Source: an uncultured Desulfosarcina sp.
GTDB lineage: Bacteria > Desulfobacterota > Desulfobacteria > Desulfobacterales > Desulfosarcinaceae
Direction: 5' to 3'
Assembly: GCA_963674945.2 (NCBI GenBank)
Contig: CAXXWQ010000004.1
Location: forward strand, 768,001-832,000
DNA length: 64,000 bases
Shown: in pieces, positions 10,889-32,494 of the stretch
How positions within the stretch are numbered: the stretch's first letter is position 1
How the letters are laid out: the number at the start of each line of letters is the position of its first letter
The notes under the pieces: model-generated
The model's input: the letters and a program-made list of their open reading frames with translations, nothing else
Database searches by the model: none
Told to the model about the DNA's origin: nothing
Position numbers and translations under genes: made by a program

Positions 10889-10965
10889 GGGCCGTTAGCT
10901 CAACTAGGCAGAGCACCTGACTCTTAATCAGTAGGTTGAAGGTTCGATTCCTTCACGGCCCACCA
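10889..10965 (+). tRNA. tRNA-Lys(CTT)
   Basis: GGGCCGT/ACGGCCC acceptor stem, D-arm GCTC..GAGC, anticodon loop CTCTTAA, GGTTCGATTCC T-arm, encoded CCA. Confidence 0.97.
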
Positions 10966-13231: not shown

Positions 13232-13504
13232 ATGAGATACCAGATACCCCGCTACTTGAACGAACAGGTCCGGTTTGTCGGAATGCAAAGCGATGAGTTC
13301 ATCATATGCCTGCTCTCTGTCTATTTTTGCGCGATCTTTCGGTTTCAGTGGTTGGTCGTGCTGCTCAACCTGACGATGGTCGCTTCCTTCATCTGGCTCA
13401 ATCGCAATTTCCCCAGAGGGTTCATCCGGCATCTTGCCTATTTCAGCGGATTTTTCAGATTTTCCAAATATCCTGACTTTTTTGCCAACAGGTTTATCGA
13501 ATGA
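13232..13504 (+). CDS. traL: F-type T4SS protein TraL
   Basis: YQIPRYLNE..DEF..PRGFIRHLAYFSG pattern; 90 aa; synteny. Confidence 0.85.
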   Translation: MRYQIPRYLNEQVRFVGMQSDEFIICLLSVYFCAIFRFQWLVVLLNLTMVASFIWLNRNFPRGFIRHLAYFSGFFRFSKYPDFFANRFIE

Positions 13505-14061
13505 AACTATCCATCTACGGAGATAAATTGGCCAATGCCCTAGCCGAAAACAGGCTGCTCAAGTTCTGTTTATTGCTGACCCTGGGTATTACGATCGTCA
13601 ATTCAATCGTGTCCTACCATGCGATGAACAGCCAGAAGGTGGTGATCCTGCCACCGATGGTGGATCATAAAATCGAGATCCGGGGCAACGATGCAGACGA
13701 TGAATATCTCAAACTGATGGGTCGGTATTCGATCAAGCTGCTTTTGGATTATACCCCCAGCAATGCAGAGCAGAACTTTTCCGATTTTCTTAAACTGGCG
13801 TCTCCTGGCGTTTTCAGTTCCATGCGAAGCGACCTCAACAAAATCATCGAGGAGGTGATTCGTCTGAGGGTCAGTTCATCTTTCCAGATTCATTCGATCA
13901 AAAAGCTGGGGACCACGAACCGGATCGAACTGATCGGCCTTCGAAGCAAGTATGCCGATGACGTAAGCATCGAAAAGGCCATCGAAAACCACATCATCGA
14001 ATATGAAATCGATGACGGCACCTTCAGGATCACGGGAGTATCCCAAAAAAATGATACGTAA
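13501..14061 (+). CDS. traE: F-type T4SS protein TraE
   Basis: N-terminal TM, VVILPP, EYLKLMG..LLLDYTPSN; synteny. Confidence 0.85.
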   Translation: MKLSIYGDKLANALAENRLLKFCLLLTLGITIVNSIVSYHAMNSQKVVILPPMVDHKIEIRGNDADDEYLKLMGRYSIKLLLDYTPSNAEQNFSDFLKLASPGVFSSMRSDLNKIIEEVIRLRVSSSFQIHSIKKLGTTNRIELIGLRSKYADDVSIEKAIENHIIEYEIDDGTFRITGVSQKNDT

Positions 14062-14830
14062 ACAATTACCCCGATTTTTGTTCGTCGTTTTGGCAGTTTT
14101 CCTGTTTCCAACGCTCTGCCAGGCATCTGAACAAGCCGCACAAGAGTCGATCAAGTACCAGGTATCGGAACAGGCGCCCTCGGTGGAACTGGCGCCGAAA
14201 GCCATCAATCGTATCCACTGCAGCGAGCCCATCCAAAACATCAATGCGCCCCAGGCATTACAGATGGAGGTGGAATACCAGGGAAACAACGCCTTCGTTA
14301 CGCTGGGTGAGCATTCAAAACGGGGAGTCATCTACATCATTACGAAAGGTGGGGACGTTTTCTCGATGGAAATCATTCCCAAAAGGGGCCTTAAGGCCAG
14401 GGTCCTGAAACTGGATTCACGAAAGCAAAAAGCCATTGACAACCAACTCAAGTTTGCCGGGCTGGACAAAGAGACAGCGGCCGTTGATCTGATTCGAAAC
14501 GCCTTTGCCGACACTATTCCTGAGAACTTCAATGTGACTGTTAAGGATCAACAAATCGATGAAATCGAGCGGCTAAGAATCCGCTTTCGGCGCAGTGTAA
14601 CGATCGATGGCGTGCCCCTTCAACTGAACGAATACCTGGTAACGATGGCGCCTGCATCGAAAACGGAAGAGATAACGGTGGATGAAACCAGTTTTCTGGT
14701 CCCCGAACTTACCCGCAACCCAACGGCCATCTGTCTGGGACAGGATTTGGCGCATTTTATCGACGGCAAGGCGGTCTTGCGGTCCGGTAAATACATGCGT
14801 CTTTTTATCGTCGAACAATCATCTAACTGA
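14051..14830 (+). CDS. traK: F-type T4SS protein TraK
   Basis: Signal peptide, VELAPKAINRIHC; located between traE and traB. Confidence 0.8.
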   Translation: MIRKQLPRFLFVVLAVFLFPTLCQASEQAAQESIKYQVSEQAPSVELAPKAINRIHCSEPIQNINAPQALQMEVEYQGNNAFVTLGEHSKRGVIYIITKGGDVFSMEIIPKRGLKARVLKLDSRKQKAIDNQLKFAGLDKETAAVDLIRNAFADTIPENFNVTVKDQQIDEIERLRIRFRRSVTIDGVPLQLNEYLVTMAPASKTEEITVDETSFLVPELTRNPTAICLGQDLAHFIDGKAVLRSGKYMRLFIVEQSSN

Positions 14831-14839
14831 TTGAAGCCC

Positions 14840-16114
14840 ATGAAAAAACTCAAAGAGCTGTTTCGAGACCTAAAAAGCAAAGACAAGAGCAGGATCGTAA
14901 AGACCGTCATCGGTTTGATTCTGGTCGTCGTTGTGGCAAGTGCCTACCAATTCACCAAGGATAAAGAAAGGCAGATCCCGACGCGCAGTGATGTCAAGAA
15001 AAACACCTTACAATTCGATGAGCGGACCTTCGAGAAGACGATCTATAACAAAACCCGTGCGGATGTCGAAGACCTGCGAAACGATTTGCTCCTTTTCAAA
15101 AAGGAAATGCGGGATATGCTCTCTAAAAAAATTCAAGAGGTCGACAAAAAACAGCGGTACGGAAACAAACAGGATGTGCCTAATCCCCTGCTGGATTCCG
15201 CTGCACACAAAAAGAACCTCGGTAGTGTTCCAACCAAAAACATCGCCTTTACGACACCTCCCCCATCTGTGATCGACAAAATACAGCGCAACCAGGTTCC
15301 CTCACCCAAGAAGAATCTTTATCAGGAAAGTCGGCCCCGGAGAAAACGATCCACCGGTAAAAAAACTGATCCGCCCATCAAGCAGATTTCGGTTTTTACC
15401 AATCCCCAGTCGAACGCCACCGACCCGCAAAATAACGAAGCCATCGAAGTCCATCTGCCACCTTCCTTCATGGAGGCCAATCTTCTCAATGGTGTCACCG
15501 CACCGGCTACGGATGTGGGAAGAAACAATCCCATCCCCATGCTGATCCGGGTGAACAACCTGGCAGTGCTGCCCAACAACGTAAAGAGCAATACCAAGGG
15601 TTGTTTCGTTGTGGCCGAGGGGTATGGAAGCCTTGCCGATGAAAGGGTGCACGCCCGCTTGTTGTCGCTATCCTGCATCAACCAAAAAGGAGGAACGGTG
15701 ATCGATCAGGCCATCAAAGGGTTTGTCGTCGATACCGACGGCAAGGAGGGCATGAAAGGCCATGTGTACGCAAAATTCGGGCAGCAGATCGCCCGGGTGG
15801 CGATCGCCGGATTTCTGGAAGGCTTGGGAGACGCAATGACCCTGGGACAGCAAGAATTCACCTATGGGGTCAATACAGGCGTTCGAACCGGTCAATTCAA
15901 GGATACCGATCCGGACACCCTGGCCAAGGCCGGCATCGGCCAGGGTATCGTCAACGTGGCCGAAGATCTTCGAAGATTCTATCTGGATCTGGCCGAACAG
16001 AGTCTGCCGGTCATCGAGGTCCACCCCACGAAAAACATCACCATCGTGATCAGTGAGGGTGTGGATATCTCCATAAAGAAACAAGAAACCTCAAAAGTGG
16101 AGCTGGAAGGATAA
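14840..16114 (+). CDS. traB: TraB/VirB10-family protein
   Basis: TM segment, coiled coil, Pro-rich linker, ANLLNGVTAP, GCFVVAEGYGSLADER, DGKEGMKG, YLDLAEQSLPVIEV. Confidence 0.92.
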   Translation: MKKLKELFRDLKSKDKSRIVKTVIGLILVVVVASAYQFTKDKERQIPTRSDVKKNTLQFDERTFEKTIYNKTRADVEDLRNDLLLFKKEMRDMLSKKIQEVDKKQRYGNKQDVPNPLLDSAAHKKNLGSVPTKNIAFTTPPPSVIDKIQRNQVPSPKKNLYQESRPRRKRSTGKKTDPPIKQISVFTNPQSNATDPQNNEAIEVHLPPSFMEANLLNGVTAPATDVGRNNPIPMLIRVNNLAVLPNNVKSNTKGCFVVAEGYGSLADERVHARLLSLSCINQKGGTVIDQAIKGFVVDTDGKEGMKGHVYAKFGQQIARVAIAGFLEGLGDAMTLGQQEFTYGVNTGVRTGQFKDTDPDTLAKAGIGQGIVNVAEDLRRFYLDLAEQSLPVIEVHPTKNITIVISEGVDISIKKQETSKVELEG

Positions 16115-16115
16115 A

Positions 16116-16574
16116 ATGAAAACGATATGGTTGTTTTTCCTCCTGTCCGTCGTGGTTTTGCTTACCGGCTGCGAAACCATGAACCCCTATGATGAATCCA
16201 GCGATTGCCCGGACCCGTTCAACGGCGATTGCGTTTCCATGGATACAGCCTACCGGCGATCCAAAGCGAATCCGAAAAACATGGAATCCATGAACATCGA
16301 TCCGAATCATGATTCACCTTTAATAAAGGATCGCCCCCAATCGAGCGATACCGGTGAGATTTTTAAACCACGCCAGGATCGCGTTTACAAAGAAGAGCTA
16401 TATCAGGAAATCGCCGGCCTGGTGAAAAGCCCCATCACGCCGGTCCGGATTCCTGCTAAACAAATGCGGGTTCTTATTTTGGGATACGACCGGGAAGATC
16501 GCTTCTACGGCCATCGCTACATCTTTTTCGAAAGCGATAAACCCCGCTGGATTTTGGATATCATCGAAGAGTAA
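16116..16574 (+). CDS. traV: TraV lipoprotein
   Basis: LTGC lipobox, CPDPFNGDCVS, PVRIPAKQMRVLI. Confidence 0.85.
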   Translation: MKTIWLFFLLSVVVLLTGCETMNPYDESSDCPDPFNGDCVSMDTAYRRSKANPKNMESMNIDPNHDSPLIKDRPQSSDTGEIFKPRQDRVYKEELYQEIAGLVKSPITPVRIPAKQMRVLILGYDREDRFYGHRYIFFESDKPRWILDIIEE

Positions 16575-16578
16575 GGCT

Positions 16579-19074
16579 ATGCTGATACTGGATAAAATAT
16601 TGGGTGTGGACGATGCTTTCAACGCCCAGCGATTTGTAGGTTTGGCCAATCGGGACAAACTATCTTCCTACCTACCCTACCAGGCATGGGACAGAGGCAG
16701 CAAAGTCTACCACAGTGCCGACGACACCTTTGGCTATGTGTGGGAATGCACGCCGTTGGTGTATGCTGCCGAAAAGGTATTCGAAAACCTGAAAGGATGC
16801 ATCCACAGCGGGATACCGTTCGGCAGCGTTCTCCAATTCATGATGTACGCCGATCCGGATTGCACCGGCCTTTTCGACCATTACCAAGCGTTGAAGACAC
16901 GCCATAATCCTTTTCTGGACACTCTCACCGATAACATGATTCAGCATCTCTGTGGAGCCGAGTTTGGTTTGAAAAGCACAAACAATATTCCTGTGAGAAA
17001 TTTCCGGTTGTTGGTGAGCCTCAAGTTTCCACCGGGACAACCGCTTAGCGATCGCCTCGAATTCGCGGCCCTTTCGGTGGCCGAAGCGCTCAAGGGCGCC
17101 GGCTTGCATCCCAATCCCATCGACCCCAATGGTTTGATCAGATTTTTATCCAAGATTCTCAACGCCGGTTCCAACACACCGATTTCCCCTTATGATCCGG
17201 AGAGGCAAATCCGCAAACAGATTATCCGCGCGGGTATGATCGATACCAAATTCAGCCATGTTAAGATCAACGGCGCGTGTGCCAAAAAGTTTCTGAAGGC
17301 CCAAACCGTGAAGGGATGGCCCATCGGCGAGATCGAGCCGCTCACCATGAACCATATCATGGGCGGCATCATGGGCGCCAATGACGACAACAATCAGATT
17401 ACCTGCCCGTTCTGGGTTACCGTAAACATCGTGTTCGAGGGACTTTCCAAAAGGATTCGTTCCAAAACCGAGTTGATGATCCGCCAGGAGAAAAGAGGAG
17501 TCCGCGGCCAAAAAGAAAACGAAAGGGAGGCCGAGTATCGCTGGGCTGCCAAGGAGTTGATCAGCGGCAACCTGTTTGTACGGGTCATCCCCATCATCTG
17601 GAACATCGGCCGCTCCGCAGAAGAGGTCGATACCAACTGCGCGCAGATCAGTCGGATATGGCACTCCCAGGGAGGCGGGTTCACGCTCCAGGAGGATATG
17701 GGTATCCTTACGCCGCTGTTAATCGCATCGTTGCCCCTGGGCCTTTACAACATCGGCACCAACATCGATTTCATGGAGCGGGACAAAATCATGCCGGCAG
17801 AGACCGCCCTGCGACTATTGCCTGTACAAGGCGATTTCACCGGTTCCGGACAGCCCACGGCCCTTTTTCTGGGACGAAAAGGACAAGTCGTCTCCTATGG
17901 AATGTTCAACGAAGGGTCGACCAACAACAACGCGGTCGTCACTGCAACGACCGGTGCTGGCAAATCCTACCTGATGAACTATCTTCTCAAGGAGATTTAC
18001 TCCAATGGCGGATTGATCCGGATCTTCGACTTGGGCAGGAGCTACGAAAAGCTGACCAAGATATTGGGGGGCAACTTCATCGAGTTCAACGAAAACTCCA
18101 GTGTATCGTTAAATCCATTCACTCACATTCGAAATATCGACGAATCCATCGACTCCATATCGGCAATCCTCTATCAGATGTGCTACTCGGCAACGGGCCA
18201 GATGCCCACGGAAACCAAAATGACCATCTTAAAAAACACGGCGCGGATGGCCTGGGAGCTTGAAGGAAATGATGCCGGCATCGATACGATTTACAGGTTC
18301 CTGAACCGCTTCACTGAGGTATCCAAGCGCATGGAGGCTGACATCGATCTGTCCAAGATCAAGGATATCGACTCCATTGCCGCAGAACTGGGATTCAATC
18401 TGAAGGATTTCACCACGAAGGGTCCCTATGGAAAGTGGTTTGCCGGACCGGCTACCCTGGACATCCGCAGCGATGAGTTCGTGGTCCTGGAGGTGGATTC
18501 ACTTAAGGACATGGATTCTTTGTTTCGTGTGGTTTGCATGCAGATCATCCATTACATCACCCAGAATCTCTATCTTTCCGATCGACAAAGACCGCGAGTG
18601 ATCGTCTTCGAAGAGACGGCCCAATGGGTCAGCAAGGATAGCTTCATCGCCATGGTCATCGAGGCCGGATATCGCCTGGCACGCAAATATTTCGGATCGT
18701 TCATCACGGTCCTACAATCGCCTTTGGACATCATCAATTTCGGTAAGGTTGGCCGGGTGATCAACTCCAACTCGGCTTACAAGTTCTACCTGGAGTCAAG
18801 GGACTATCCCCAGGCCATCCAAGAGAAGATCATCGAATATGACGAATTCATGGGAGCAATCTTAAGCTCGGTACGTCTTGTGAAGCCCAAGTATTCCGAA
18901 TTCTTGATGGAGACGCCCAATGGAACTGGTGTAACCCGGCTCTCCCTTGATCCGGTAGCCTACTATGCCTTTACTTCCGATCCACAGGACAACGCCCGTA
19001 TCAATGCCCTTTTAAAGGAGGGATATTTATATCATGAAGCGATTCAAAAGCTCGCCGATCAAAGGAGTTTTTAG
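16579..19074 (+). CDS. traC: TraC/VirB4-family ATPase
   Basis: NAVVTATTGAGKS Walker A, IFDLGRSY, SLNPF, IVFEE Walker B, GYRLARKYFGSF. Confidence 0.95.
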   Translation: MLILDKILGVDDAFNAQRFVGLANRDKLSSYLPYQAWDRGSKVYHSADDTFGYVWECTPLVYAAEKVFENLKGCIHSGIPFGSVLQFMMYADPDCTGLFDHYQALKTRHNPFLDTLTDNMIQHLCGAEFGLKSTNNIPVRNFRLLVSLKFPPGQPLSDRLEFAALSVAEALKGAGLHPNPIDPNGLIRFLSKILNAGSNTPISPYDPERQIRKQIIRAGMIDTKFSHVKINGACAKKFLKAQTVKGWPIGEIEPLTMNHIMGGIMGANDDNNQITCPFWVTVNIVFEGLSKRIRSKTELMIRQEKRGVRGQKENEREAEYRWAAKELISGNLFVRVIPIIWNIGRSAEEVDTNCAQISRIWHSQGGGFTLQEDMGILTPLLIASLPLGLYNIGTNIDFMERDKIMPAETALRLLPVQGDFTGSGQPTALFLGRKGQVVSYGMFNEGSTNNNAVVTATTGAGKSYLMNYLLKEIYSNGGLIRIFDLGRSYEKLTKILGGNFIEFNENSSVSLNPFTHIRNIDESIDSISAILYQMCYSATGQMPTETKMTILKNTARMAWELEGNDAGIDTIYRFLNRFTEVSKRMEADIDLSKIKDIDSIAAELGFNLKDFTTKGPYGKWFAGPATLDIRSDEFVVLEVDSLKDMDSLFRVVCMQIIHYITQNLYLSDRQRPRVIVFEETAQWVSKDSFIAMVIEAGYRLARKYFGSFITVLQSPLDIINFGKVGRVINSNSAYKFYLESRDYPQAIQEKIIEYDEFMGAILSSVRLVKPKYSEFLMETPNGTGVTRLSLDPVAYYAFTSDPQDNARINALLKEGYLYHEAIQKLADQRSF

Positions 19075-19618
19075 CATCGGTGTGTTGGTGATTTGTCTGG
19101 TCGTCATTGAAATGGATGTCCAGGCCAAGAACCTGGGCCGTGTGGGGCCAGTATATCCGATCGTTGAGAAAGCGGTAACGCCTGATCAAGACAGTTCGGA
19201 TCATCGCCCTCAACCGCCCTACCCCATGTCGCTGCCGGTCGCACTGGCCGAAACACAGGAGTTTCTGGATTTGACCTATACAGTTCCCTGGGACATCGCC
19301 GATGCGAAAGGAAATATCGTCTACCCGAAAGGGTATCGCTACAATCCTTTGGCACATCGCCGTTTTCGCACCATGATCGTCATCGATGGAAGTGAGCCGA
19401 ACCAGATCGACTGGGCACTGCATCTGGAACAGACCTCCGACCCCATGACGCGTGTGGTGATCACCCAGGGCAACCCAAAAGACGTATCCCAACGATTCAA
19501 CCGGCGCGTTTACCGATTGCATCCAAAGCTGGCTCAGCGCTTTGGGATAAAGAACGTACCCACCATCGTCCAACAGAAAGGAGAGATCCTTGCGGTTACA
19601 TCGAAGCCTGTCCATTAG
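19034..19618 (+). CDS. traW: TraW-like protein
   Basis: NLGRVGPVYPIVE, DAKGNIVYPKGYRYNPL, IVIDG, LAQRFGIKNVPTIV. Confidence 0.8.
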   Translation: MKRFKSSPIKGVFSIGVLVICLVVIEMDVQAKNLGRVGPVYPIVEKAVTPDQDSSDHRPQPPYPMSLPVALAETQEFLDLTYTVPWDIADAKGNIVYPKGYRYNPLAHRRFRTMIVIDGSEPNQIDWALHLEQTSDPMTRVVITQGNPKDVSQRFNRRVYRLHPKLAQRFGIKNVPTIVQQKGEILAVTSKPVH

Positions 19619-20519
19619 TTGGATACTGATTCTTCTGCTGCCCACGCTTGTGGGTGCGACATGAATCGAACAGGAATGGAACCCGGGTGGGTTCGACTTC
19701 GAGTTTGAAGTGCTTAGCGCCTGTGTTTGTTGTTCCAGTCCGTATGATTGCAGATATGGTGCGCTCATCGCATTTTGGGAACCTCACCGAATTATCGAGA
19801 CGGTCAAAGACCCGTATTGTTCGCCGACCGGATCGCAATCCTTTCTGCTGAGCGAAGGGGCAGGATCTTTGGATCAATTGTTTTTCAGCGGGACTCATTC
19901 CGACCATTCCAATACGGAAGACGCAACTGTTTTTGCGCAAGTACATTATCTTACTCACCCTATGCTGAATGTAATGATCACGGTCTTTGACGGTATCTGC
20001 CATGAGTTTTCGGACAGTAGAATGGAATACATCACGGAGATCGACGGTGAGTGGCAAGAAATCTACAGCTCCATGTGGTGGCCGGAAGCATCGCTGTTTG
20101 CCACGTATCCCATGGTCGAAGCCTGCATGGCCGATGCCGCTACGGCACAGTTCGGAACACCCATGGATGCATTGTACTGGTGCCTGGGCGCATGGGGGAC
20201 CCTTTTTAACATGAATGGCCATTTCAACCAGGATGAGTACACCACGGGAAATGCTGGCCTTGCTGCCCGGGCCGTCGCCCATATGGGTCGCCTGGGCTTG
20301 TTGATGGATGCCGCCTCCGTACCTTGTTACGCCGTACCGATGCCCATCTGGATAAAAAGCTATTTCAGGCTGCAGCCACTAAGGCCGAGTGAACGGCCTT
20401 TTAAGATTCCTATCGGCATGGATCCGCTATTTTGGGCCGGAGGCCTGAACCGTGTGGAATTGGGCGGCGACAACTTTGCGTGGCTTCTGTGGAGGCTTCG
20501 TATTTGCTGTGCCAGTTGA
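19590..20519 (+). CDS. traU: TraU-family protein with an in-frame TGA at codon 25 (selenocysteine or nonsense mutation)
   Basis: IAFWEP..IETVKDPYC, FAQVHY, YITEIDGEW, LYWCLGAWG, PMPIWIKS, WR.RICCA; the frame extends upstream through TGA 19662-19664 to a TTG start with AAAGGAG RBS and a signal peptide. Confidence 0.85.
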
Positions 20520-20554
20520 TTACAAATCTTTAGGGAAGTATTTCGTGAACTGAC

Positions 20555-21235
20555 ATGAAATCAATCCATTTGGCAATTTCACTATCGTTGATCGCGGGAT
20601 TGGCCCTTTTTGCCAATGCGCAGGATATTGAGAAGATCGTCGAAGGGATCGAAAAAAGCCCCTATTACGAAGCTGCCAAACAGTGCGTTAAACGAAATGA
20701 AAAGGAGATTACTCGAAACGTACAACTAAAGATTGATGAGAAGAAAGATGCTGTAGCTGCTATCAATGAACAATTAAGAGGGACATTCGTAGAATCAAAA
20801 ACGTCTGGCCCCGAGGATCCCAATGCCTGTTTTGACGCGCAATCCCGTATCTATATTTTTGTATCCCAGTCGATCCCCCTTTCAGTTCTCAAATCCTTTG
20901 CCGCTGACATCGACACCCTTGGAAGCGATAATATACGGCTTGTGTTCAAAGCATTCCCGAAGGACTTCTTGCATCGGTTTTTACAAAAAGACCACGGCTG
21001 CACGAATGAAAATTGTGTGGTCAAGGCAAAGGTTATCGTCGGCGAGAACCTTTTTAAACGGTTTGTGGTGGACAAGGTGCCGGCCGTGATCTTTGATCCC
21101 GACCCTACCAGCTCACATGAGGGCTGGCTGCTCGTTTATGGGGCAACATCCTTACATCAGGCATTGACGCTGTTTCATCGAGAGTCCGGCCGGCAAGAAC
21201 TGAAACTGGCTGCAAACCGGGCAGGTCAAAATTGA
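20555..21235 (+). CDS. trbC: TrbC-type F-pilus assembly protein
   Basis: Signal peptide, IYIFVSQSIP, LFKRFVVDKVPAVI, VYGATSL. Confidence 0.8.
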   Translation: MKSIHLAISLSLIAGLALFANAQDIEKIVEGIEKSPYYEAAKQCVKRNEKEITRNVQLKIDEKKDAVAAINEQLRGTFVESKTSGPEDPNACFDAQSRIYIFVSQSIPLSVLKSFAADIDTLGSDNIRLVFKAFPKDFLHRFLQKDHGCTNENCVVKAKVIVGENLFKRFVVDKVPAVIFDPDPTSSHEGWLLVYGATSLHQALTLFHRESGRQELKLAANRAGQN

Positions 21236-21696
21236 AATGGCCGAAACCAAACAAAAGATTATTCGGTTACATCATGCTACTTTGCATTTCGCTTGTCATC
21301 GGCATGATCATACCGACGCGTCTGACCATAACCAAAACCGATAGCGTTAAATATCATCTGTTCTGGGAGATCAATCGAAAGGCACTTGAAAAAGGAGATT
21401 ACGTGCGACTCCCCCTGTTCGAACCGGACGTGGGATGCGAACCTTGCAGCATCGTCAAGCGTGTCGGATGTCTTCCGGGAGATCGGTTGGTCAACGAGGA
21501 TATAGAGTACTTCTGCAATGATAATTATCTGGGACAGTGCAAAACAGGAAAAAATATCGTGCCATTTCGATTCTCCGGAACGGTGCCCCCAGGAATGGTT
21601 TTTCTGATAGGTGACAGGGATAACAGCTATGACTCTCGATATTTCGGGTTTAAATCGATTGCCGATATCGAAACGGTGCTGTTTCCTCTTTTTTAG
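21232..21696 (+). CDS. S26-family conjugative signal peptidase (TrhF-like)
   Basis: TDSV serine, IVKRVGCLPGD lysine, GD..NSYDSRYFG. Confidence 0.88.
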   Translation: MKWPKPNKRLFGYIMLLCISLVIGMIIPTRLTITKTDSVKYHLFWEINRKALEKGDYVRLPLFEPDVGCEPCSIVKRVGCLPGDRLVNEDIEYFCNDNYLGQCKTGKNIVPFRFSGTVPPGMVFLIGDRDNSYDSRYFGFKSIADIETVLFPLF

Positions 21697-22492
21697 TCTT
21701 CTTCTCATGGCACCTTGCGTATGGGCTGGAGAGACTTTCTGGGAGGATCGCCAAAGGGGATACTTTTGGTACGAAGACCCGCAAGAGCAGCCGACCCAAG
21801 AGCAAGAAGAAACGATCGAGGATAAACCAGTGAATAGCAACCCCCTACAAGATGAAAAGCCGGATCAATACACCTATGATGAACTTTTCGATTTGCATCC
21901 GGACCGATTTCAAGTGGTGATCGACGAAAGGCTCAAGCATGCTGTGCACCGTCCAACCGAAGTAAATGTGTTGCGGTTTTTAGAGGCTACCGACGTGGCC
22001 AAAAAGAAAAGTCGCCTTGTGGCCAATGTCGCCGGCTATGTGGCCATGCAAAACCCGCGGTTGACCGGCGAGTCCCGGTATCCCTATTCGCAGCCCGGTC
22101 GCAGCGCATACATTGAAAAGCGTAATAGCGAAGTCCAAACGACCCTGGAGGAATTCAAGGATCGATATGCCATCATCGCCTTCAACCAGATGGGGTGCGG
22201 CTATTGCCAGGCACAGGAAGAGATTCTGGCCTACTTCGAACATTTGAATGGCTGGACCGTGCGGCGGATCGACATCGCCGAAAACCCGGAACTGGCAACC
22301 AAATTTCGAGTCGAGACAACACCCACGTTGCTTCTGGTATCTCGGAGCACCCAAAAATCGCAGATCGTCTCTTCGGGTGTGATTTCGTTGGATCAGCTCA
22401 CCAAGCGCGTTTACCAGTTGATCCGTATGATGGAAGACCGTGCCGATCCGAAACAGTTCTATCAAATGGATTATCAAGAAGCCGCAAATTAA
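21659..22492 (+). CDS. traF: TraF thioredoxin-like pilus assembly protein
   Basis: RGYFWYEDP, AVHRPTEVNV, CGYC, VETTPTLLLV, GVISLDQL; start approximate. Confidence 0.88.
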   Translation: MPISKRCCFLFFSLLLMAPCVWAGETFWEDRQRGYFWYEDPQEQPTQEQEETIEDKPVNSNPLQDEKPDQYTYDELFDLHPDRFQVVIDERLKHAVHRPTEVNVLRFLEATDVAKKKSRLVANVAGYVAMQNPRLTGESRYPYSQPGRSAYIEKRNSEVQTTLEEFKDRYAIIAFNQMGCGYCQAQEEILAYFEHLNGWTVRRIDIAENPELATKFRVETTPTLLLVSRSTQKSQIVSSGVISLDQLTKRVYQLIRMMEDRADPKQFYQMDYQEAAN

Positions 22493-22505
22493 CGAGGTGA
22501 TATCC

Positions 22506-23921
22506 ATGAAAAAACGTTTGCTGATAAGCATGATCCTTGTCCTGGCGATGTCCGGAATTGCTTTCGCCGATGATTGGATCGACAACTGGATACAACAGGC
22601 GACCCATAGCGGCCCCAACATGTTTGAAAGCCAGAAACGGGGATATGCCTCGGCCGGGAGCCTGTCCCTTCGCTTTCGCAATGAAAATGATTATCTGGTG
22701 AGTGTTGCACCGCCTCGCTTTCGCGCCGGATGCGGTGGCATCGATATGTTTATGGGAAGCTTTGCCTACCTGGACGCCGAATATCTGATGGAAAAACTTG
22801 AACGTATCGCGGAAGGCGGGGTGGCGACCTTTGTCTACGATATCGCCATGTCGGTACTCTCCGAGCCAATCCAAAAATCGATGAAGTCATTGGAGGCAAT
22901 GGTGGATCGGCTCAATCAACTGCAGATCGATGACTGCCGGGCCGCCAAGGGTGTTGCGACCTATCTCAAAAGTACCTCCTCGGGAGAGGATCAATCCGAA
23001 GCCCTTCAGAAATTTCTCATCGAGAGCGGGATCCATGAATTTTACCAGGGCTCTCAGGATGAGTACAATCATGCCAACACTCAGCAGGTCATGCAGGCGA
23101 CCGGGGTTTCGGTAAACGATATGACCGCCGGCTGCCCCGAAGAGATGCGACGGGTATTTTTCAGAAACGGTTCGCTGTTGGCCAACGTCGCAATGGAAAA
23201 CAATATTCCTGAATCCCAGACCCGGATCATGTCTGCCTTTGTAGGTGACGTGCTGATCGACAACGGCAATTATTTCATGGTCGGTCCTTGCTACAACGAC
23301 CCCGGGGATGTGGATGCGCTGATCTTTGGTGACCTCATCACCCGAAATACCACCAACGAGTGCAGGCAATTGGATCACATCCGAATCAACGGCGTGAACT
23401 ATGACTCTCTCTACGATTGGTCCTATGCCATGATCGGTGAGATTATCACGGCCATCGGCACGAAAGCGGATCTATCCGCTACGGCGCAGTCCTTTATCGA
23501 AAGCATGCCCTCTCCGTTGTATATGCTGATCCTAAACGACATCATGGCCGTTGGGGATTTGAACAATGCAGAAGAGATCTCCGGCCGTCTTTCATACGTG
23601 TGTGCCCTTTCCTATGCCTACCAGATGAGCAAGTCGCTTTTGTTCAACACCTACAAACTCTATCACGATGCCATGCGCATCGCGCACAATCAGTTGGGGC
23701 CGAATGCCGGAGGAAGATGTGTCCAGCAACTCGTCGAACAGCCGGCAAGCTACATCGAAACCATACTGGGCCGATTGGACAGCATGTACGGCTATCTCGA
23801 AGAAGCCTATGGCGCTTCATTGCAGCGAATCACCAACGGCCTGGAGCAGGAAAGATTGATCCAGGCCAGAAGTGATCGTCTGGATCGTGTCTCTTTCGAC
23901 AAATCGGGGATACCCAAATGA
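22506..23921 (+). CDS. traH: TraH pilus assembly protein
   Basis: QKRGYASAGS, PPRFRAGCGGIDMFMGSF. Confidence 0.92.
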   Translation: MKKRLLISMILVLAMSGIAFADDWIDNWIQQATHSGPNMFESQKRGYASAGSLSLRFRNENDYLVSVAPPRFRAGCGGIDMFMGSFAYLDAEYLMEKLERIAEGGVATFVYDIAMSVLSEPIQKSMKSLEAMVDRLNQLQIDDCRAAKGVATYLKSTSSGEDQSEALQKFLIESGIHEFYQGSQDEYNHANTQQVMQATGVSVNDMTAGCPEEMRRVFFRNGSLLANVAMENNIPESQTRIMSAFVGDVLIDNGNYFMVGPCYNDPGDVDALIFGDLITRNTTNECRQLDHIRINGVNYDSLYDWSYAMIGEIITAIGTKADLSATAQSFIESMPSPLYMLILNDIMAVGDLNNAEEISGRLSYVCALSYAYQMSKSLLFNTYKLYHDAMRIAHNQLGPNAGGRCVQQLVEQPASYIETILGRLDSMYGYLEEAYGASLQRITNGLEQERLIQARSDRLDRVSFDKSGIPK

Positions 23922-26329
23922 AACGACTTTTCAAAATCCTTCCCCTGTTGATTGTACTCATGCCGGGCGCAGCCTTTGCTCAGGTTCCGGATACATTCAG
24001 GGAGTATGTCACCTATGGCGGTTTCCATTGCATCTATAACGCCTTGAGTCGCATCGCGCTGAGTTTTTCGGACAACTCCTATGAGGGGCTTTTCGTCGCA
24101 TTCATGGTGGTGGCCATCACCTTTTGGCTGGGTTGGGGCGCCATCGGCTATTTTAGAAATGGCAGTGCACTTGGTTTCATTTACATGGCGTTTACTATTT
24201 TATCCGGGTGTATCGTCTATTTCGCTTTAATCCGCCCCACAACATCCATGGTGGTGTATGACGAGCTTTTGAACGTTCATCAGGAGGTGGCGGACGTTCC
24301 CGAGGGTGTGGTTCTTCTGGCCGGCATGCAAAACAGTTTTACCCGCACCGTAACCGACATCATCTGGACATCTGCTAATCCGGAAGTGTACGACTATCGG
24401 CAAAACGCCAACGGGGATGTCTACAATATCGTTCGCCAGGTCTATAACGGAGAGATCGATATCTCTACCGAAAATGGAAACGGACGCTATATCAATGCCT
24501 CCTTGCGGCGCTTTTGCGAAGATTGCGTTACCTTCGAAATCCTCCGGCCCCAAAGTGATCTGAATGTCAACATGTTCGCCACCAGTTCGGATTTGACCGA
24601 ACTATTGGAAGCAGCGCAGAACCCGTCGGTATTCACGGTCTATTTCAGTGATGCCAATCGCACCGGCATAACGATGAGCTGTTCCGAAGCTTATGATCGA
24701 ATCGTCAGTGATCTGAACACCATCACCGACGTTTCCGATGAGAACATGAATTTCTGGCGAACCAAGTGCGCCGAGGCCGGGTACCATAACAGCACGGAAA
24801 TGGTTGGCCAGGACCAGATCGAACGCTGCATGGAAAGAACCACACAATTTTTATCCTACATCACCCAGGGTAACGTGGCTCCTTCGGAAGTCACCCGCAA
24901 CCTTCTGATCTCCCGTGAACTTTGGAACGCGGCTCTCAATGCCGATATCGCCACTCTCGGAGACTATAGAATCGGCACGGCCCTGTCGGGTGAAGCCATT
25001 TCTACGGATCGATGGCTGCCATTGATCAAAGAGGTCATGACCGCAATTTATTTAGGGCTGGTACCCTTTCTGGTCATTTTATTGCCGACACCGCTTTTGG
25101 ATCGAGTCGGTGGGCTGATCATCGGTTTTTTCTGTTTTCTGACGGCCTGGGAGGTCTGCGATGCCCTGATCCACAGTTTTGCCATGGATCATACCATCAA
25201 CTTCTTCGATGAAATTCGTCGCAACGGGCTCAGTTTTAAATCCATTGCCATGATGGAAAGCCACAGTCACCGATCCATGTTAATGTTCGGAAAGACCCGT
25301 GCTGCCACAATGATCCTGGCCGGCGTAATCTCTGGGGTAATCGCCAAGTTCGGTGGCGCGGCCCTGGCCCACTTTGCCAATACCATGAACTTCGGACATT
25401 TGGGTATCGAGGCGGCAACCCGAATCAATGACCCCTCTCAGCAGGCCAATGCCTTGGAGTCCTATGTCAAAACACCCGTTCCTGTTGAGACGCATCGCAA
25501 TCAGGGCTATCATGAGATGGTTCGCCTCGCCAATCTTGCATATGCCGGTAACGTATCGGGAAGTGACAATTTATTTACCGACAGTGACGGATCGTTCCCA
25601 ACCGCAGCTACCCATAAAGGCAGGGAAATGACCAATCGCACGCTCGATGGTTCGGCACGTTACTCTGCCGTCAACAAACAAGCCGGAATCAAGGACATGA
25701 ACGATCAGGACGCCCGCGAACTGATGCAGGAAAGCCAGGTGGCCAGCGGCCTGTCATCTGCGTCACGAGCCGAAAGTTTGGGTATGGAAGAGCATTACGA
25801 CCGGACAAGTACGGAAATGATCAGAAACGATTCTGCCTTGAAAGCATTTGGAAAAGATGGTGAACTAAGTGAAAGACAGGCTCAGGCGGGCACCATTCAG
25901 GGAACGCAGCAGCGCGGAACCTTGGATGCAAACCGCGCCATCGGCAATCAAGGGATATACCAGACGGCTCATACCGACACTGCCCGTCACAGCGCTCATT
26001 CCATCCTGGCAAACATTGTGGCAACGGATATTCTGCAAAATGGAGCCGTCAGCCAAAAAAACCGTGATCTTCTCAATCGATTGAATGAGGATCAGGATGT
26101 AAAGGGCTATCTTCAGACTGCCACACGTATGGATGTTTCTCCAAATGAAAATGAAGCCGATGCCCTGGCTTCCTATTTTGGTTCTCACGGTCATAGTTTT
26201 ACTTCTGGTATGCTACAAGGCTCACAGGTGAGTTTTAAAATGGCCTATGATCCGAAAAGCGGAGACATCATTCCATCTAACATCGACGTTTCGACCGGTG
26301 CTGGTTTCCACAGTTTTGGTCAATACTTT

Positions 26330-28785
26330 CAGGAAACTTGATTTCCTAATTGTTGCATATGGCAAGCAAAACATAATGTAAGTGGTTGAAAAACAGAAAG
26401 ATAGGAGTCTGAATCCAGCAGGCCGGTAAGGTATTGCAACCGGAAAATGAACATGGCACCTTTAACCTTATTATCTTGGCGGATAAATGAAAGGAAAAGG
26501 ATGCCATGCCTCAACAGATACTACCACTTATTCCTCGCGGTGCAAGACAAATCAACGGGCTTGTCAGTGTATTTCGTGACGATACGACCTGGACCTATTT
26601 TCTATCGACCGTTCCGATTTATTCTCACAGACAAGGCGATCAACGAATGTTTCGGATGATAACAGCCCAACTGGTTGAATCCGGAGCTTGCCGCCAGATC
26701 GATATCCAAAACACATTCGGCGTATCCAAGAGCAATGTCATCCGATCCGTGAACAAACTCAGGTCCGGCGGCGCCGAGGCATTTTTCGTTCAGCGGCGGG
26801 GACGACGCGGCGGCAAGGTTTTCAAACCTGAGGTGCTTGAACAAGCCCAACGTTTACTGGATCAAGGGTGCTCGAAAAAAGATGCCGCCCTGGAACTTGG
26901 CATTAAATACGATACGTTTCGCAAAGCTATAGATGATGGTCGGTTAATCGAATCAAGGATTGGTGAACCGTGTCTAACCAAATCAGATCGGGACATGGTC
27001 GACATGGCTGCTGCCGATGGTATGGGGACGGCTTGCAACCGAGTCGGGGAACGCATATTGGCATCATTGGGCAAAATGGTTGGTGCGCCGGTTCGTTTTG
27101 ACAGATGCCTGGACGTTCCCAAAGCAGGCGTTCTTTGTGCGATACCGTCATTGGTGGCAAACGGGTTGTTTACCGGCGCAAAACAGTTCCTCGGCCAAGT
27201 CAAAGGCTATTACACGATCTTTCATGTCTTGTTGCTGCTTTCGTTTATGGCCTTATGCAGGATCAAGACGACAGAAAAAATACGAGGCCATGCTCCGGGA
27301 GAATTTGGTAAGTTATTGGGCTTGGATCGTGCACCGGAGGTTCGCTGTTTGCGTTACAAGATGGATGCGTTGAGCGCAGACCACGGCGCGGAAAAGTGGG
27401 CCGCATACCTCGGTAAATACTGGATGGAACAGGCGCCCGAATCGGTTGGCGCGCTTTATGTTGACGGGCATGTACGTGTTTATCATGGAAAATTGACCCG
27501 ACTACCGCGCCGCTACGTGTCCCGGGAACGATTGTGCATGAGGGGCATTACCGACTATTGGGTTAACGATGCGATTGGCCGACCTTTTTTTGTCGTCGAA
27601 AAGCAGATCGATCCTGGATTATTGGCGGTTTTAAGAGACGATATCGTTCCCCGGTTGTTGCAAGACGTTCCGAATCAACCCGGTTTGCAGCAACTACAAG
27701 AGAACCCATGTTTATGCCGGTTCGTTCTTGTTTTCGACAGGGAAGGATATAGTCCCGCATTCTTCAAGGAAATGTGGGATCGCCATCGAATCGGCTGCAT
27801 GACGTATCATAAGCATCCTGGTGAATCATGGCCGGAGCATTGGTTCACCGAGTATGAAGTTGCGATGCCAAACAAAGAGGTGGTGAAGATGCGGCTTTGC
27901 GAAATGGGTAGTTTGGTGGGATCTGGTAAGGGTGCAACATGGATGCGACAAGTGCGAAAACTGACCGATTCCGGACACCAGACCAGCGTAATCAGCACCG
28001 CTTTCGATTTGCCGCATACTCAATTGGCAGCACGCATGTTCAGCCGGTGGTGTCAGGAAAACTTTTTCAACTATATGATGCAACATTTTGATATCGATGT
28101 GCTTTTAGATTATGGTGTCGTTGAATTTCCTGATACCGAACGGGTAATCAACCCCGTTTGGCGGCAATTGAATCAATCCCGTAATTCGTTGCAGAACAAG
28201 CTACGATATCGTCGTGCCTGTTTTGCCGAGATGACCATTCACCCTGAAAATGAAGACAAACCGGTAAAGTTTAAGAAGTGGATAGAGAAAAAGGCCGAGC
28301 TGTTAGAAGAAATCGAAAAGATGGAGTATCAACTCAGCGAGTTGAAAGAAAAACGAAAACAGACAAGTAAACACATCACGTGGGGAGAACTTGAAGCAAA
28401 AGATAAATTTTTACGTTTACAACCGGGCAGAAAACGCCTGATGGACACGGTTCGTATGATTGCATATCGTGCAGAGACGGCAATGGTTGGGTTGCTCACG
28501 GGTCCGACGGTAAACTCGTCGGATGCACGGAGTCTTCTCCAGACACTGTTCCAGACCGAAGGCGATGTACTGCCCGATATTGAAAATCAGCAATTGAATA
28601 TACGATTGCACGGCGCTTCGTTCCCAGCGGCCAATCGGGCTCTTTGCCAACTGTTTGCGCATCTGAACAGTGCGCAGGTAAAATACCCCGGTACCGAGCT
28701 GCAAATGATATTCGAACTAAATGGCTGCAGCACCTCAAATCATGCCGGAGGTGTCACATAGTTTTCCCGGAGATGCAGTGTTCTG
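26330..28785 (+). mobile_element. 2456-bp insertion sequence, family unassigned
   Basis: ACTTT target duplication (26325-26329, 28786-28790); imperfect terminal IR CAGGAAACTTGATTTCC vs CAGAACACTGCATCTCC. Confidence 0.88.
26506..28761 (+). CDS. Large DDE transposase with N-terminal HTH domains
   Basis: YVDGH, FDREG, RWCQENFF putative D-D-E; fills the element. Confidence 0.85.
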   Translation: MPQQILPLIPRGARQINGLVSVFRDDTTWTYFLSTVPIYSHRQGDQRMFRMITAQLVESGACRQIDIQNTFGVSKSNVIRSVNKLRSGGAEAFFVQRRGRRGGKVFKPEVLEQAQRLLDQGCSKKDAALELGIKYDTFRKAIDDGRLIESRIGEPCLTKSDRDMVDMAAADGMGTACNRVGERILASLGKMVGAPVRFDRCLDVPKAGVLCAIPSLVANGLFTGAKQFLGQVKGYYTIFHVLLLLSFMALCRIKTTEKIRGHAPGEFGKLLGLDRAPEVRCLRYKMDALSADHGAEKWAAYLGKYWMEQAPESVGALYVDGHVRVYHGKLTRLPRRYVSRERLCMRGITDYWVNDAIGRPFFVVEKQIDPGLLAVLRDDIVPRLLQDVPNQPGLQQLQENPCLCRFVLVFDREGYSPAFFKEMWDRHRIGCMTYHKHPGESWPEHWFTEYEVAMPNKEVVKMRLCEMGSLVGSGKGATWMRQVRKLTDSGHQTSVISTAFDLPHTQLAARMFSRWCQENFFNYMMQHFDIDVLLDYGVVEFPDTERVINPVWRQLNQSRNSLQNKLRYRRACFAEMTIHPENEDKPVKFKKWIEKKAELLEEIEKMEYQLSELKEKRKQTSKHITWGELEAKDKFLRLQPGRKRLMDTVRMIAYRAETAMVGLLTGPTVNSSDARSLLQTLFQTEGDVLPDIENQQLNIRLHGASFPAANRALCQLFAHLNSAQVKYPGTELQMIFELNGCSTSNHAGGVT

Positions 28786-29589
28786 ACTTTGAGCGACCCA
28801 TTACGCCTGCTCAACCTTATGTCCTGGCCAATCCTTCCTCGGGAGACACCGTGACCATCACATCCGGAAGGGTTTACGGGCAATCCGGTGTTTACCAGCA
28901 GGCCGAAGGATTTATGTCTGACGGCACACCGGTTAGTATGGGTTCTTCCGATGGCCATGTTATGGACCGCATGTCACTGGGTGAAAGGTTCAATGGCTTT
29001 GGGACGCCGTATGTTCTTTCTCGCCTGGGCCAGGGTATTGATACGATGGTCAGAGGGGTTGATCTTACAGATGCGTCACAACGTGCTGAAGTAGTTCCGC
29101 AAATAGCAAAGGCGGTCTCGTCTAATTTTATCTCCGCCAATCAGAACTATCTGGACCAAGTAACTTCCTCATTAGGTGGTTCTCTTGGTTTGGGGACAGG
29201 CAAAATCATCGGTGCCTCCGGCAGTGCCGGTGTAACGTTCTCCAAGCGTGATCTGACCGAACTATCCCAAAACGTGATAACCCAACGCCTTATGGATGTG
29301 ACCGCAAATGCCTCTACCAATCAGATTGCCAGAGAAGCGCTCCAATATGAAGTCAGCGCAATGACAGCCAACAACTACAGATATATGAAATCAGCCATCA
29401 AAGAGTATAGCCAGAATCACATCAAGGATATGGCCAGTGATGCTGTTGATAAAATGAAAAATGGTCCAAAGGATTTCGATAAGAATATCAAAGACATGAA
29501 CGAAAATCTAAAAGGCTGGGATGATATAGGCATGTGATTGGTTTACAGGACAAGGAGGCAAAAACAACAGATGAATTTGGAGGACTTAA

Positions 29590-29826
29590 ATGAGTGACAA
29601 TACATATTTTCTCATAATGATCCTTTTTTTGGCTATTTTCATTCTGGGTTTCATCTATCGATTGTTATTTAATCGATTTAAATCAAAAGGCGATAAAAAT
29701 GCGATAGAACCAACCTCAACTCAGGATATTGAGAAGGAATTCGATGATGATCCCGTCATAAATCCCGGCTATTCCTCTCTTAATTGCAATGTCTTTCACA
29801 AAGACCGTTACGATAGTAATGATTAA
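29590..29826 (+). CDS. Small single-TM protein downstream of traG
   Basis: GGAGG RBS, hydrophobic N-terminus, acidic tail DDDPVINPGYSSL. Confidence 0.65.
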   Translation: MSDNTYFLIMILFLAIFILGFIYRLLFNRFKSKGDKNAIEPTSTQDIEKEFDDDPVINPGYSSLNCNVFHKDRYDSND

Positions 29827-30292
29827 ACCTACTCACTCCACAGGACTTTACTGGAAAGCAGACAGCTTGTCCAACATACTGAATACAATAGTGATGATTT
29901 GTTTTCTATGTGGAGTTCTCGGTTGCGGAGGGGCTTCGGATTCCTCAATTACAGACAATATCTCTCAACCTAAAAATGGCCCACTGGCAGGTATTTGGAT
30001 TGGATCGACAAACGGAGTTACACACACAATTACCATCGACGGTCAGGGTAACATCTATGTTGCGGCATGGGATACGAGCGACGCGTGCTTTACGAGTGAC
30101 TCCGGTACAACCGTTCATTTAGACAGCCATGTTGAGATTCTTTGCAGCGGTTATGATGACGATCGACAACGCTACCTTTATTTAAGCATTTATGGTGAAT
30201 ACGACGGTGAGGATACCATCGACGGCCAAGTGTACGCCGAAGAGTGTGGTGCCCGTGATGAACCGATCATTTTAAACCGCTTGGTGGATTAG
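29819..30292 (+). CDS. Hypothetical lipoprotein
   Basis: Hydrophobic stretch ending VLGC followed by GGASDSS; start uncertain. Confidence 0.55.
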   Translation: MIKPTHSTGLYWKADSLSNILNTIVMICFLCGVLGCGGASDSSITDNISQPKNGPLAGIWIGSTNGVTHTITIDGQGNIYVAAWDTSDACFTSDSGTTVHLDSHVEILCSGYDDDRQRYLYLSIYGEYDGEDTIDGQVYAEECGARDEPIILNRLVD

Positions 30293-30329
30293 GTTCAGGC
30301 ATTATAAGGCTAACAGGATTGCTGACTTC

Positions 30330-31043
30330 ATGGATCATTTATCCAAACATCTGAACGAAACCGCAGAACGAGTGGCCTACCAGGCCGTCGAAGCTGCTAT
30401 CATCGAGTATTTTCAGGTACGAGACTGTATTGTCAATTTTGATACCCAATGTGCCTGTATCCTGTTCGATCCGTTCGTTCATAAAAAATGGATCGGTAGG
30501 TTCAATGGACATGTCGATACCTTTGGTTCAACTGAAATTCCCCTTTCGGTTCCTCTGAAACTATTACCTCCCCAAATCAGGCAAATGACACGGCCTATCT
30601 TGGAACATCTTATGGCGGGACAGGAGGTTCTGGCATCGTATCTCAAGTGGAAACCACTTGAACGCAAGATTGTACCAGGGACATTCACCGAGGAGCACCA
30701 GAATCACTATAAGATTAGTTTAAAGGGAGAAACAGGTATATTGAATCACCGGGATGGAATCAAAAGCGAAAACTATTCACTCGGCGAAACCCACCTCTTC
30801 CATGTTAAGCGAGTGCGGATGGGAAATGAACATGTCCGGATTCATCTCTCGAGAAGGTCCAAAACAATACAGGAGTATGTGCTCACGAGAGAATTCCCCA
30901 AGTACAAGTTCAAATGTTATCGGCGTTTGCCGGGTATCAAATCCTGGATTCGAACAACGGCGCCCCGTTATCGATGGGGCTTGTTTCTTTCCAAGGAGAT
31001 TCGCAAATCCCTGGCATGGGAATACCTTCAGTTTTTTTCTTGA
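30330..31043 (+). CDS. NusA-like protein (N-domain, S1 domain, partial KH)
   Basis: IVPGT..YKISL.GETGIL...DGIKSENYSLGE...FHVKRV....VRIHLSR and RRLPGIKS parallel the NusA S1-KH1 pattern. Confidence 0.7.
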   Translation: MDHLSKHLNETAERVAYQAVEAAIIEYFQVRDCIVNFDTQCACILFDPFVHKKWIGRFNGHVDTFGSTEIPLSVPLKLLPPQIRQMTRPILEHLMAGQEVLASYLKWKPLERKIVPGTFTEEHQNHYKISLKGETGILNHRDGIKSENYSLGETHLFHVKRVRMGNEHVRIHLSRRSKTIQEYVLTREFPKYKFKCYRRLPGIKSWIRTTAPRYRWGLFLSKEIRKSLAWEYLQFFS

Positions 31044-31059
31044 GAAAAAGGAGTCTGCT

Positions 31060-31425
31060 ATGACGGAAACACAAAAAGATGCCAAAAAAGGCCCGGCAAA
31101 AGGAAGGGATTATTTTATTGAAATGGCCAAGCATCCACGTTCCCGGGTCATCATGGCCAACACCTCGGACACGTATATGATGGCCGACATAACCCGCCAG
31201 GGAGACATCATCATCAGCAGGCTCAGGGACGAATTGATGCGATCGGTTACCATCGAAGATTTTTCCGGCTATATGGATGAATACTATAAAATAATATTCA
31301 GTCTCGAAGACCACCTGCAATTCATTGGGTCCAGAGTAGGCATCGATTATCGTCCATCACGCACCTACAGATCCATGCAAAAAAATAAAGATCAATCATC
31401 GATGACTCCCCTTACGGAATCTTAA
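31060..31425 (+). CDS. Hypothetical protein
   Basis: AAGGAG RBS before ATG 31060; operonic spacing. Confidence 0.65.
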   Translation: MTETQKDAKKGPAKGRDYFIEMAKHPRSRVIMANTSDTYMMADITRQGDIIISRLRDELMRSVTIEDFSGYMDEYYKIIFSLEDHLQFIGSRVGIDYRPSRTYRSMQKNKDQSSMTPLTES

Positions 31426-31437
31426 AAAGACCACGGC

Positions 31438-31992
31438 ATGTTTGGATTATTCTCAAGGAAAAAGAAATCCTACATAGCGGGTATTCGAACCATATCCATC
31501 GCAGATCTGGCAACACTGTGGCGCGATTCTGATGAAGTTCTTGCTGATGATGGCAAGGCTTCAGATATTAAACTCGAAGACACACGAGGGGGGAAATCAA
31601 AGGGAAAGGCTGCGGATAATGGCAACGATGCCTGGTTTGATGAAAAACGTTTCTTTCCCGATTTGAAGAAGCGATTAGAGAATTTTCGCACATCGGCGTT
31701 TCGATACAAGGCAAATGCATACTATACCCTCGACACCATTGCCAAGGAATTGAACCAGCAACGCAAGGTTAACAATCTCGAACCTTTGGAGCCCAACGAC
31801 GTCATCGATTTTATCCATTCGAATCAGATTCTTGATAGCGGGAAATACATGTTGCGGTTCGATGTGGGTCTGCCCACCAAAATCTATCTCTACTCTCACC
31901 CCTGTCCCGCAAATGAGAAATCAGTTCGCAATAGCCCCATCGTTGAAAACGGTCGCAGGTTGAAAAGCATAAAACTCATGAAAAAGACCTAA
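31438..31992 (+). CDS. Hypothetical protein
   Basis: 184-aa ORF in the operon; no catalytic motif recognised. Confidence 0.6.
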   Translation: MFGLFSRKKKSYIAGIRTISIADLATLWRDSDEVLADDGKASDIKLEDTRGGKSKGKAADNGNDAWFDEKRFFPDLKKRLENFRTSAFRYKANAYYTLDTIAKELNQQRKVNNLEPLEPNDVIDFIHSNQILDSGKYMLRFDVGLPTKIYLYSHPCPANEKSVRNSPIVENGRRLKSIKLMKKT

Positions 31993-32206
31993 ATTGAGCG
32001 ATTGTCGAGCTTGCCGCAGGTACAAGGAAGATGGCTTTCCGCTATAGTCGCCTATGCGGTAAGACGTTTGACGCCGTAGATGCGGTGAGATCAGCAATCC
32101 CAACGGGTTTCAAATTTTCGAGGAAATATTATGCCATCGTTCAACAAATTTAAGGTTTTCATCATATGAAAAAATTTGAAACGCTCATTTTAGGAATGAG
32201 TGGGCC

Positions 32207-32464: not shown

Positions 32465-32494
32465 GGCCCCCACCCGACTCATAAAGGTTGCAAT

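Follow-up and report, generated by a model that had tools for sequence, protein, structure and literature searches.

A TraU conjugation protein whose in-frame UGA very likely encodes selenocysteine

The traU gene of an F-type transfer element from an uncultured Desulfosarcina sp. very probably encodes a selenoprotein, with selenocysteine (Sec) at codon 25, an in-frame TGA. The gene lies in a 64,000-nucleotide stretch of DNA (the window). The selenoprotein reading follows from conservation of the TGA, purifying selection, the selenium machinery of the host, a hairpin that tracks the TGA, and the joint loss of positions 25 and 77 within the TraU family, all shown from sequence; the actual insertion of selenium is what we infer from them. 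TraU would then form a new family of selenoproteins inside a conjugation family that is already known. If true, the selenoproteome gains a family from an unlisted class, a DNA-transfer machine on a mobile element, and Sec would be placed at what seems to be a structural bond, not at a catalytic site.

Reading frame and signal peptide of TraU

The traU frame extends on the plus strand from TTG 19590 to a stop at 20519 (19590..20519) and comprises 309 codons, giving a 309-aa protein if UGA25 is read through. The sole internal stop is the TGA at 19662..19664 (codon 25, predicted Sec25, plus strand), which is followed by 284 further codons up to 20519. A Shine-Dalgarno sequence, AAAGGAG (19577..19583, plus strand), lies within the 3' end of traW ahead of the TTG, and all 14 close traU homologues have AAAGGAG and TTG with this spacing. 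A preliminary description of the window had already extended the frame to this TTG behind AAAGGAG, with the 309-aa length and the TGA at this position, and is confirmed on each point. The portion of traU past 19710 corresponds to PF06834 (200 bits against a cut-off of 26.5) and the gene sits between traW and trbC, which places it in TraU by both profile and context. Its score against the TraU equivalog PRK13737 is 92.8 bits, under the curated cut-off of 298. An AlphaFold model with Cys placed at position 25 has a mean pLDDT of 92.7.

The first 24 codons (19590..19661, plus strand) are predicted to form a signal peptide with a hydrophobic core, which takes on a helix at residues 5-16 of the model. 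The core is retained in all nine rows that carry TGA (maximum 10-residue Kyte-Doolittle mean 2.7-3.2). By the -3/-1 rule, signal peptidase I presumably cuts after V-G-A. The pN/pS of the signal peptide is 0.55, a value that is confounded by the overlap with traW and is not used as evidence of selection. A lipoprotein anchored at Sec25 would require G-A-T-U as the lipobox, which we take to be a poor match to the consensus. For F TraU, the lipoprotein idea has been proposed for Cys26 (accessible text of PMC7555446).

Codon 25 across TraU homologues

Codon 25 was read in 14 close sequences, namely the window, five homologue loci, one further locus, and seven of 11 metagenome loci. Repeated loci were counted once; of the other four metagenome loci, three fall short of the codon-25 column and the fourth is a Cys form that is only distantly related. 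TGA occupies the codon in nine sequences (window, L010, L011, L012, L022, L023, L024, L025, and L027) and TGT or TGC in five (L009, L013, L015, L026, and L028); after merging two near-identical pairs, TGA is found in 8 of 12. Further internal stops are absent from all 14, and the protein identity among TGA rows is 63-97%. The column is Cys in 108 of 128 full-length TraU proteins. The alignment of homologues hence shows either Cys or, in independent elements, a TGA that is kept (9/14), rather than Cys or Trp codons throughout, and the 9-to-5 split at a Cys column supports the earlier proposal that Sec replaces a conserved Cys of TraU. An in-frame UGA that is aligned with a conserved Cys, one of the marks by which selenoproteins are recognized, is thus present at the sequence level.

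The trait is confined to one TraU subfamily among the genomes searched, as judged from sequence: no TGA stands at this column in 21 more distant TraU loci (two of them unreadable at the N-terminus) or in 16 others (one a repeat). Of the 52 cluster members listed, the annotated start falls directly past the codon-25 column in 31, and four have Cys; these figures point indirectly to TGA as the prevailing state of this TraU clade. The TraU of D. widdelii, a species whose strain PP31 has the TGA form (locus L011), is on record as a 287-aa form that begins after the TGA, and the present reading corrects this annotation.

The hairpin downstream of the UGA

A hairpin of bSECIS type, GAACCC[GGGT]GGGTTC (19679..19694, plus strand), is predicted from folding, shuffles, and model constraints. 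Its upper stem is formed by GAACCC (19679-84) and GGGTTC (19689-94) and encloses the loop GGGT (19685-88), 20 nt past the UGA. The segment 19662-19710 folds at -18.8 kcal/mol (z -3.13), and 1 of 200 shuffles folds as well. The upper stem, loop, and 20-nt spacing given in the preliminary description hold, and the lower stem TCGAA/TTCGA does not: its arms are complementary, but no lower stem is conserved among the homologues, and this one is not the minimum-energy pairing, in which its 5' arm pairs with 19703-19708. The bSECIS model in Fig. 2 of PMC13188914, a source accessible in part, specifies a loop of 3-9 nt, a stem of 4-16 bp, a G in the first two loop positions, a spacing of 16-37 nt, and an MFE <= -7.5. 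The window hairpin passes this model with a loop of 4, a stem of 6, GG, a spacing of 20, and an upper stem at -8.0.

The hairpin is found with the TGA rather than with Cys. The upper stem alone reaches <= -7.5 in five of nine TGA rows versus none of five Cys rows. When the first 12-15 nt, which the ribosome covers, are removed, the stem probability is >=0.55 in seven of the TGA rows (>=0.99 in five) versus <=0.03 in all five Cys rows; the stem is weak in L022 and L025. As a naked 54-mer RNA, 6/9 TGA rows reach a stem probability of 0.6. Codon 34 is GGG in 8/9 TGA rows, and both reverted rows, the nearest of the Cys relatives, have GGA, a silent change that breaks a C-G pair. L010 keeps the stem through a two-sided change that alters two residues. 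This single two-sided pair is equalled in 67 of 500 shuffles and by a slide of -1, and covariation of the stem is therefore not significant. Synonymous shuffling gives P values of 0.051 for the window, 0.011-0.10 for six other TGA rows, and 0.40 for L024/L027.

By chance, an equally good hairpin follows 33 of 1291 host TGA stops (2.6%) and 95 of 3000 sampled Cys codons. The single window hairpin is thus only moderately unusual, and the case rests on conservation; given the covariation result, the synonymous-shuffle P values, and the relatedness of the rows, the tracking of the TGA is supporting rather than decisive. Host selD and genes that, by their Sec motifs, look fdhA-like and hdrA-like have similar G-loops such as GGA, AGGT, GGTC, and GGGTT at +18 to +27.

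Selenium machinery of the hosts and a possible cysteine route

The preliminary description had made Sec dependent on selA, selB, and selC in the host, and all were found: the window host has selA, selB (two above the cut-off), selC (tRNA-Sec), and a selD with its own in-frame TGA, and its genome contains two UCA tRNAs. Three other hosts of TGA forms (G044, G033, and G440) have selA, one selB, and a tRNA-Sec each. The closest named TraU homologues come from Desulfosarcina.

The second UCA tRNA of the window host (U73, A1:U72) is located directly upstream of the second selB. This selC*/selB* pair (G000:C3:570736-572793, minus strand) adjoins what is presumably a YeeE/YedE-like cluster. With such a pair, the UGA could be read mainly as Cys via the selC* tRNA(Cys, UCA) and SelB*, yielding an ordinary TraU. 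The layout of tRNA and selB is the one published for the selC*/SelB* system, in which a tRNA of this kind inserted Cys at the UGA of a Sec position in E. coli (accessible text of PMC5389517). A cysS* lacking the anticodon-binding domain, however, was not found in the host, where PF01406 has two matches: one is a normal CysRS, and the other is N-terminally fused and retains its C-terminal part. The latter, a CysRS-like gene at G000:C1:209699-210601, lies in a 763-codon frame, apparently behind a domain that we assume to be a cysteine synthase. Moreover, G044, G033, and G440 have a single selB at E<=1e-70, so selC*/selB* is no general explanation of the TGA; in the window host, and there only, it may act as a backup that provides Cys. 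Cys as the main residue at codon 25 is improbable, and Sec remains the preferred assignment.

Termination and decay at the UGA

Just as improbable is a UGA that acts as a true stop or as a leaky one (read by near-cognate Trp or Cys tRNAs) and limits TraU, with or without a restart. Codon 26 is GTG or ATG in five of nine TGA rows, and gene callers start there, but the other four rows, the window included, have ATC, GTA, ATT, or GTC, and the product of a restart would be without a signal peptide. Nor does a stop fit with a TGA that is placed exactly on the Cys column, a hairpin that tracks it, and a Cys77 that is retained in 14 of 14 close homologues. Codon 27 is GAA in 9/9 TGA rows versus 1/5 Cys rows.

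Downstream of the TGA, window traU compared with six TGA rows shows a dN/dS of 0.09-0.13 at a dS of 1.1-1.9, and a seventh row is saturated. A frame that is kept over such a distance indicates that traU is not a dead gene. The UGA is thus kept in other organisms under purifying selection, a second mark of selenoproteins. One contig, possibly from the source sample, covers the stretch and differs from it at 0 positions; over 19585-19979, a contig from a second sample of the same study likewise shows 0 differences. The TGA, carried by contigs of two samples, is no assembly error. The preliminary description had weighed a plain TGY>TGA mutation in a decaying element with a broken traG. TraG is indeed broken in this copy, split by a transposase at ~26328-28786, and TGY>TGA takes one base change, but a nonsense mutation or sequencing error is already refuted by conservation, with the same TGA in eight other sequences down to 63% protein identity between TGA rows, a dN/dS of ~0.1, unbroken TGA-bearing tra operons in G044 and G033, and identity of the two samples' contigs at the site.

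Evolutionary history of codon 25

In a tree built with the codon-25 column masked, L009 and L015, both Cys rows, are nested in a supported TGA clade (99/98; 96), and the TGA row L025 groups with Cys rows at lower support. The data reject one clade of all TGA rows (p-AU 1e-8, or 0.002 when L025 is dropped), and the tree requires at least three changes of the codon-25 state. Most simply, TGA would have arisen from Cys, reverted at least once, and possibly arisen a second time. Since selA and selB are present in the hosts of L009 and L015, reversion was not forced by the loss of the machinery. Predicted Sec is optional in the TraU family. The natural Sec and Cys forms, which are 88-92% identical and come from hosts that both have the Sec machinery, provide a pair for asking what keeps Sec in place of Cys. 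The two elements with a reversion to Cys both show damage (L064-L068), with insertions in traG and traD of G017 and several split alignments in the G016 draft; they are too few to interpret.

Sec25, Cys77, and the role of TraU

The predicted Se-S partner of Sec25 is Cys77 in the motif KDPYC (19818..19820, plus strand), as judged from joint presence and absence. From 173 TraU proteins, 128 are full-length and 119 of these have an N-terminus that reaches column 25. Of the 119, 105 have both Cys25 and Cys77, 13 have neither, and one is discordant; no other Cys column tracks position 25 in the 128 proteins. Over the tree, each of the two shows 9-10 changes; of five independent pairs, 4-5 agree and none is opposed (p 0.06-0.125). 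We infer a 25-77 disulfide in the TraU family and probably a Sec25-Cys77 Se-S bond here. No PDB match was found for TraU by sequence or fold, and the co-loss pattern offers a testable disulfide assignment for a family without a solved structure. In a sister TraU subfamily (P0016-P0020, P0025, and P0174-P0185), CC replaces the single Cys at the first position and a W-x-x-C or W-E motif is conserved, possibly an extra disulfide. A TraF-like thioredoxin with a CGYC motif (21611..22492, plus strand) is a candidate redox protein and a plausible partner of Sec25. DsbB is found in one of five genomes and does not track the TGA.

Synthesis of the selenoprotein would start at TTG 19590 with the signal peptide. 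The host SelB, acting on the hairpin 20 nt downstream, would then deliver Sec-tRNA(Sec) at codon 25. TraU would be exported and its signal cut, which would leave Sec at approximately position +2 of the mature periplasmic protein, where it may pair with Cys77 as an Se-S bond that replaces the family disulfide. When recoding fails, only a 24-residue peptide and no TraU would be made. The accessible text of PMC7555446 describes TraU as a periplasmic protein that transfer requires once the pilus has retracted; its cleavage near Cys26 is disputed, and it is without a structure. Failed recoding should therefore lower transfer. Sec recoding in E. coli proceeds at 30-40% and needs selenium, according to the accessible part of PMC4513850. 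The benefit of Sec is a matter of speculation and most likely lies in an easier formation or reshuffling of the 25-77 bond in an anoxic, sulfidic periplasm.

A further-reaching scheme, which we consider doubtful as a whole, takes the early UGA as a selected gate, so that the mating apparatus is built only where selenium and the host Sec machinery are available. The Sec25-Cys77 bond would then be a redox-sensitive latch that is reset by the TraF-like CGYC protein, and the mobile element would use an expansion of the genetic code to time its transfer and to set its onward hosts. Cys forms are also found in hosts with selA and selB, which does not support the tie of transfer to selenium or to Sec-competent hosts that had been suggested before.

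The transfer element

The F-type transfer region (13232..34557, plus strand) has the order traL-E-K-B-V-C-W-U-trbC-S26 peptidase-traF-H-G...traD, which is the same in five relatives and in G440. An insertion sequence (26329..28785, ends approximate, plus strand) with a PF21804 transposase at 26506-28761 splits traG. In the TGA-bearing elements of G044 and G033, traG is unbroken with >1000 codons, and traU is the only gene with a stop in the conserved core; other stops there belong to over-extended or overlapping ends of query ORFs. The G440 element shows some split alignments.

The left attachment site is a tRNA-Lys(CTT) (10889..10965, plus strand), the last 24 nt of which recur ~157, 169, and 184 kb downstream, outside of the window; a phage-integrase gene adjoins the first repeat. 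The element has the features of an F-type ICE, namely attachment repeats with an integrase, and mating-pair genes with a coupling protein (traL-traG, traD). TraN was not found in the four TGA hosts, and no relaxase family was found among 61 window ORFs or among 67/74 downstream ORFs of >=170 aa; PF07514 (relaxase) gives only weak partial matches elsewhere in the genomes. Given this gene content, self-transfer of the element is at most putative.

Several other features of the element were observed. Candidates for the traN and relaxase roles (13232-51821) are an integrase-like conserved ORF at 50859-51821 and the unnamed ORFs located between traG and traD. A conserved 475-aa ORF at 11268-12695 is without a Pfam family, has HTH and replication-initiator clusters as its closest neighbours in the protein atlas, and contains tandem 23-nt repeats within its coding sequence (11691-11872); it resembles a Rep gene that carries iterons inside. 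In G000:C4 the 3' end of the tRNA-Lys recurs at ~935800, 947600, and 963150, suggesting tandem islands. The first island (~157 kb) harbors an ATP synthase operon, K+ and Na+/H+ transporters, glycolytic genes, and chaperones. The cargo includes an AbiEi/AbiEii toxin-antitoxin pair (36284-37646) and an HTH-IrrE and PIN pair (42067-43607). No relative was found among viral contigs, and at least 5000 records of a plasmid collection are all <60% identical.

Comparison with known systems

No report of a TraU with selenocysteine was found in the accessible literature on selenoproteins in conjugal transfer, in type IV secretion or ICEs, and on plasmids or phages with a bacterial SECIS. TraU is absent from the 119 families in Table 1 of PMC13188914, in the accessible text of which "conjug" has 0 matches and in which the families cited to Haft and Tolstoy 2025 appear. 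It is likewise absent from the accessible tables and supplements of deep-Sep (PMC12013277), although D. widdelii was analysed there, and from the text and the available part of the supplement of BSepDB (PMC13326102). No NCBIfam seleno-TraU family matches. With the predicted Sec/Cys-pair selenoproteins of these sources (119 families in the case of PMC13188914 Table 1), as far as they are accessible, window TraU shares a UGA on a conserved Cys, homologues with TGA from other organisms that use Sec, a bSECIS-like hairpin, and Desulfobacterota hosts. The selenoproteins in the accessible catalogues are mostly redox enzymes or act in metal handling and transport, and none is a conjugation or secretion subunit. 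Unlike them, the predicted Sec of TraU lies in no CxxU/UxxC motif and apparently takes part in a bond over a long range.

The window host shares the layout of tRNA and second selB with the selC*/SelB* system, as far as described in the accessible text of PMC5389517, and differs in having no cysS*; the other three TGA hosts are without a second selB.

F-plasmid TraU belongs to the same family (PF06834; PRK13737) and resembles window TraU in the traW-traU-trbC position, the signal peptide, the first Cys position directly after it, and the richness in Cys. The window differs in having TGA for the first Cys, a stretch to the CxC motif that is ~20 residues shorter than in canonical TraU, an element in which no traN was found, and the low PRK13737 score (92.8 versus 298).

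MccSep/ExtKL of Geobacter sulfurreducens (bioRxiv 10.1101/2025.11.18.688581, accessible in part) is likewise a periplasmic selenoprotein of the Desulfobacterota with a signal peptide, and its gene was annotated as split at the UGA. In contrast to TraU, it is a catalytic multiheme enzyme of unrelated sequence that is encoded on the chromosome and has its Sec at 325. As described there, MccSep/ExtKL is a precedent for the export of a Sec protein.
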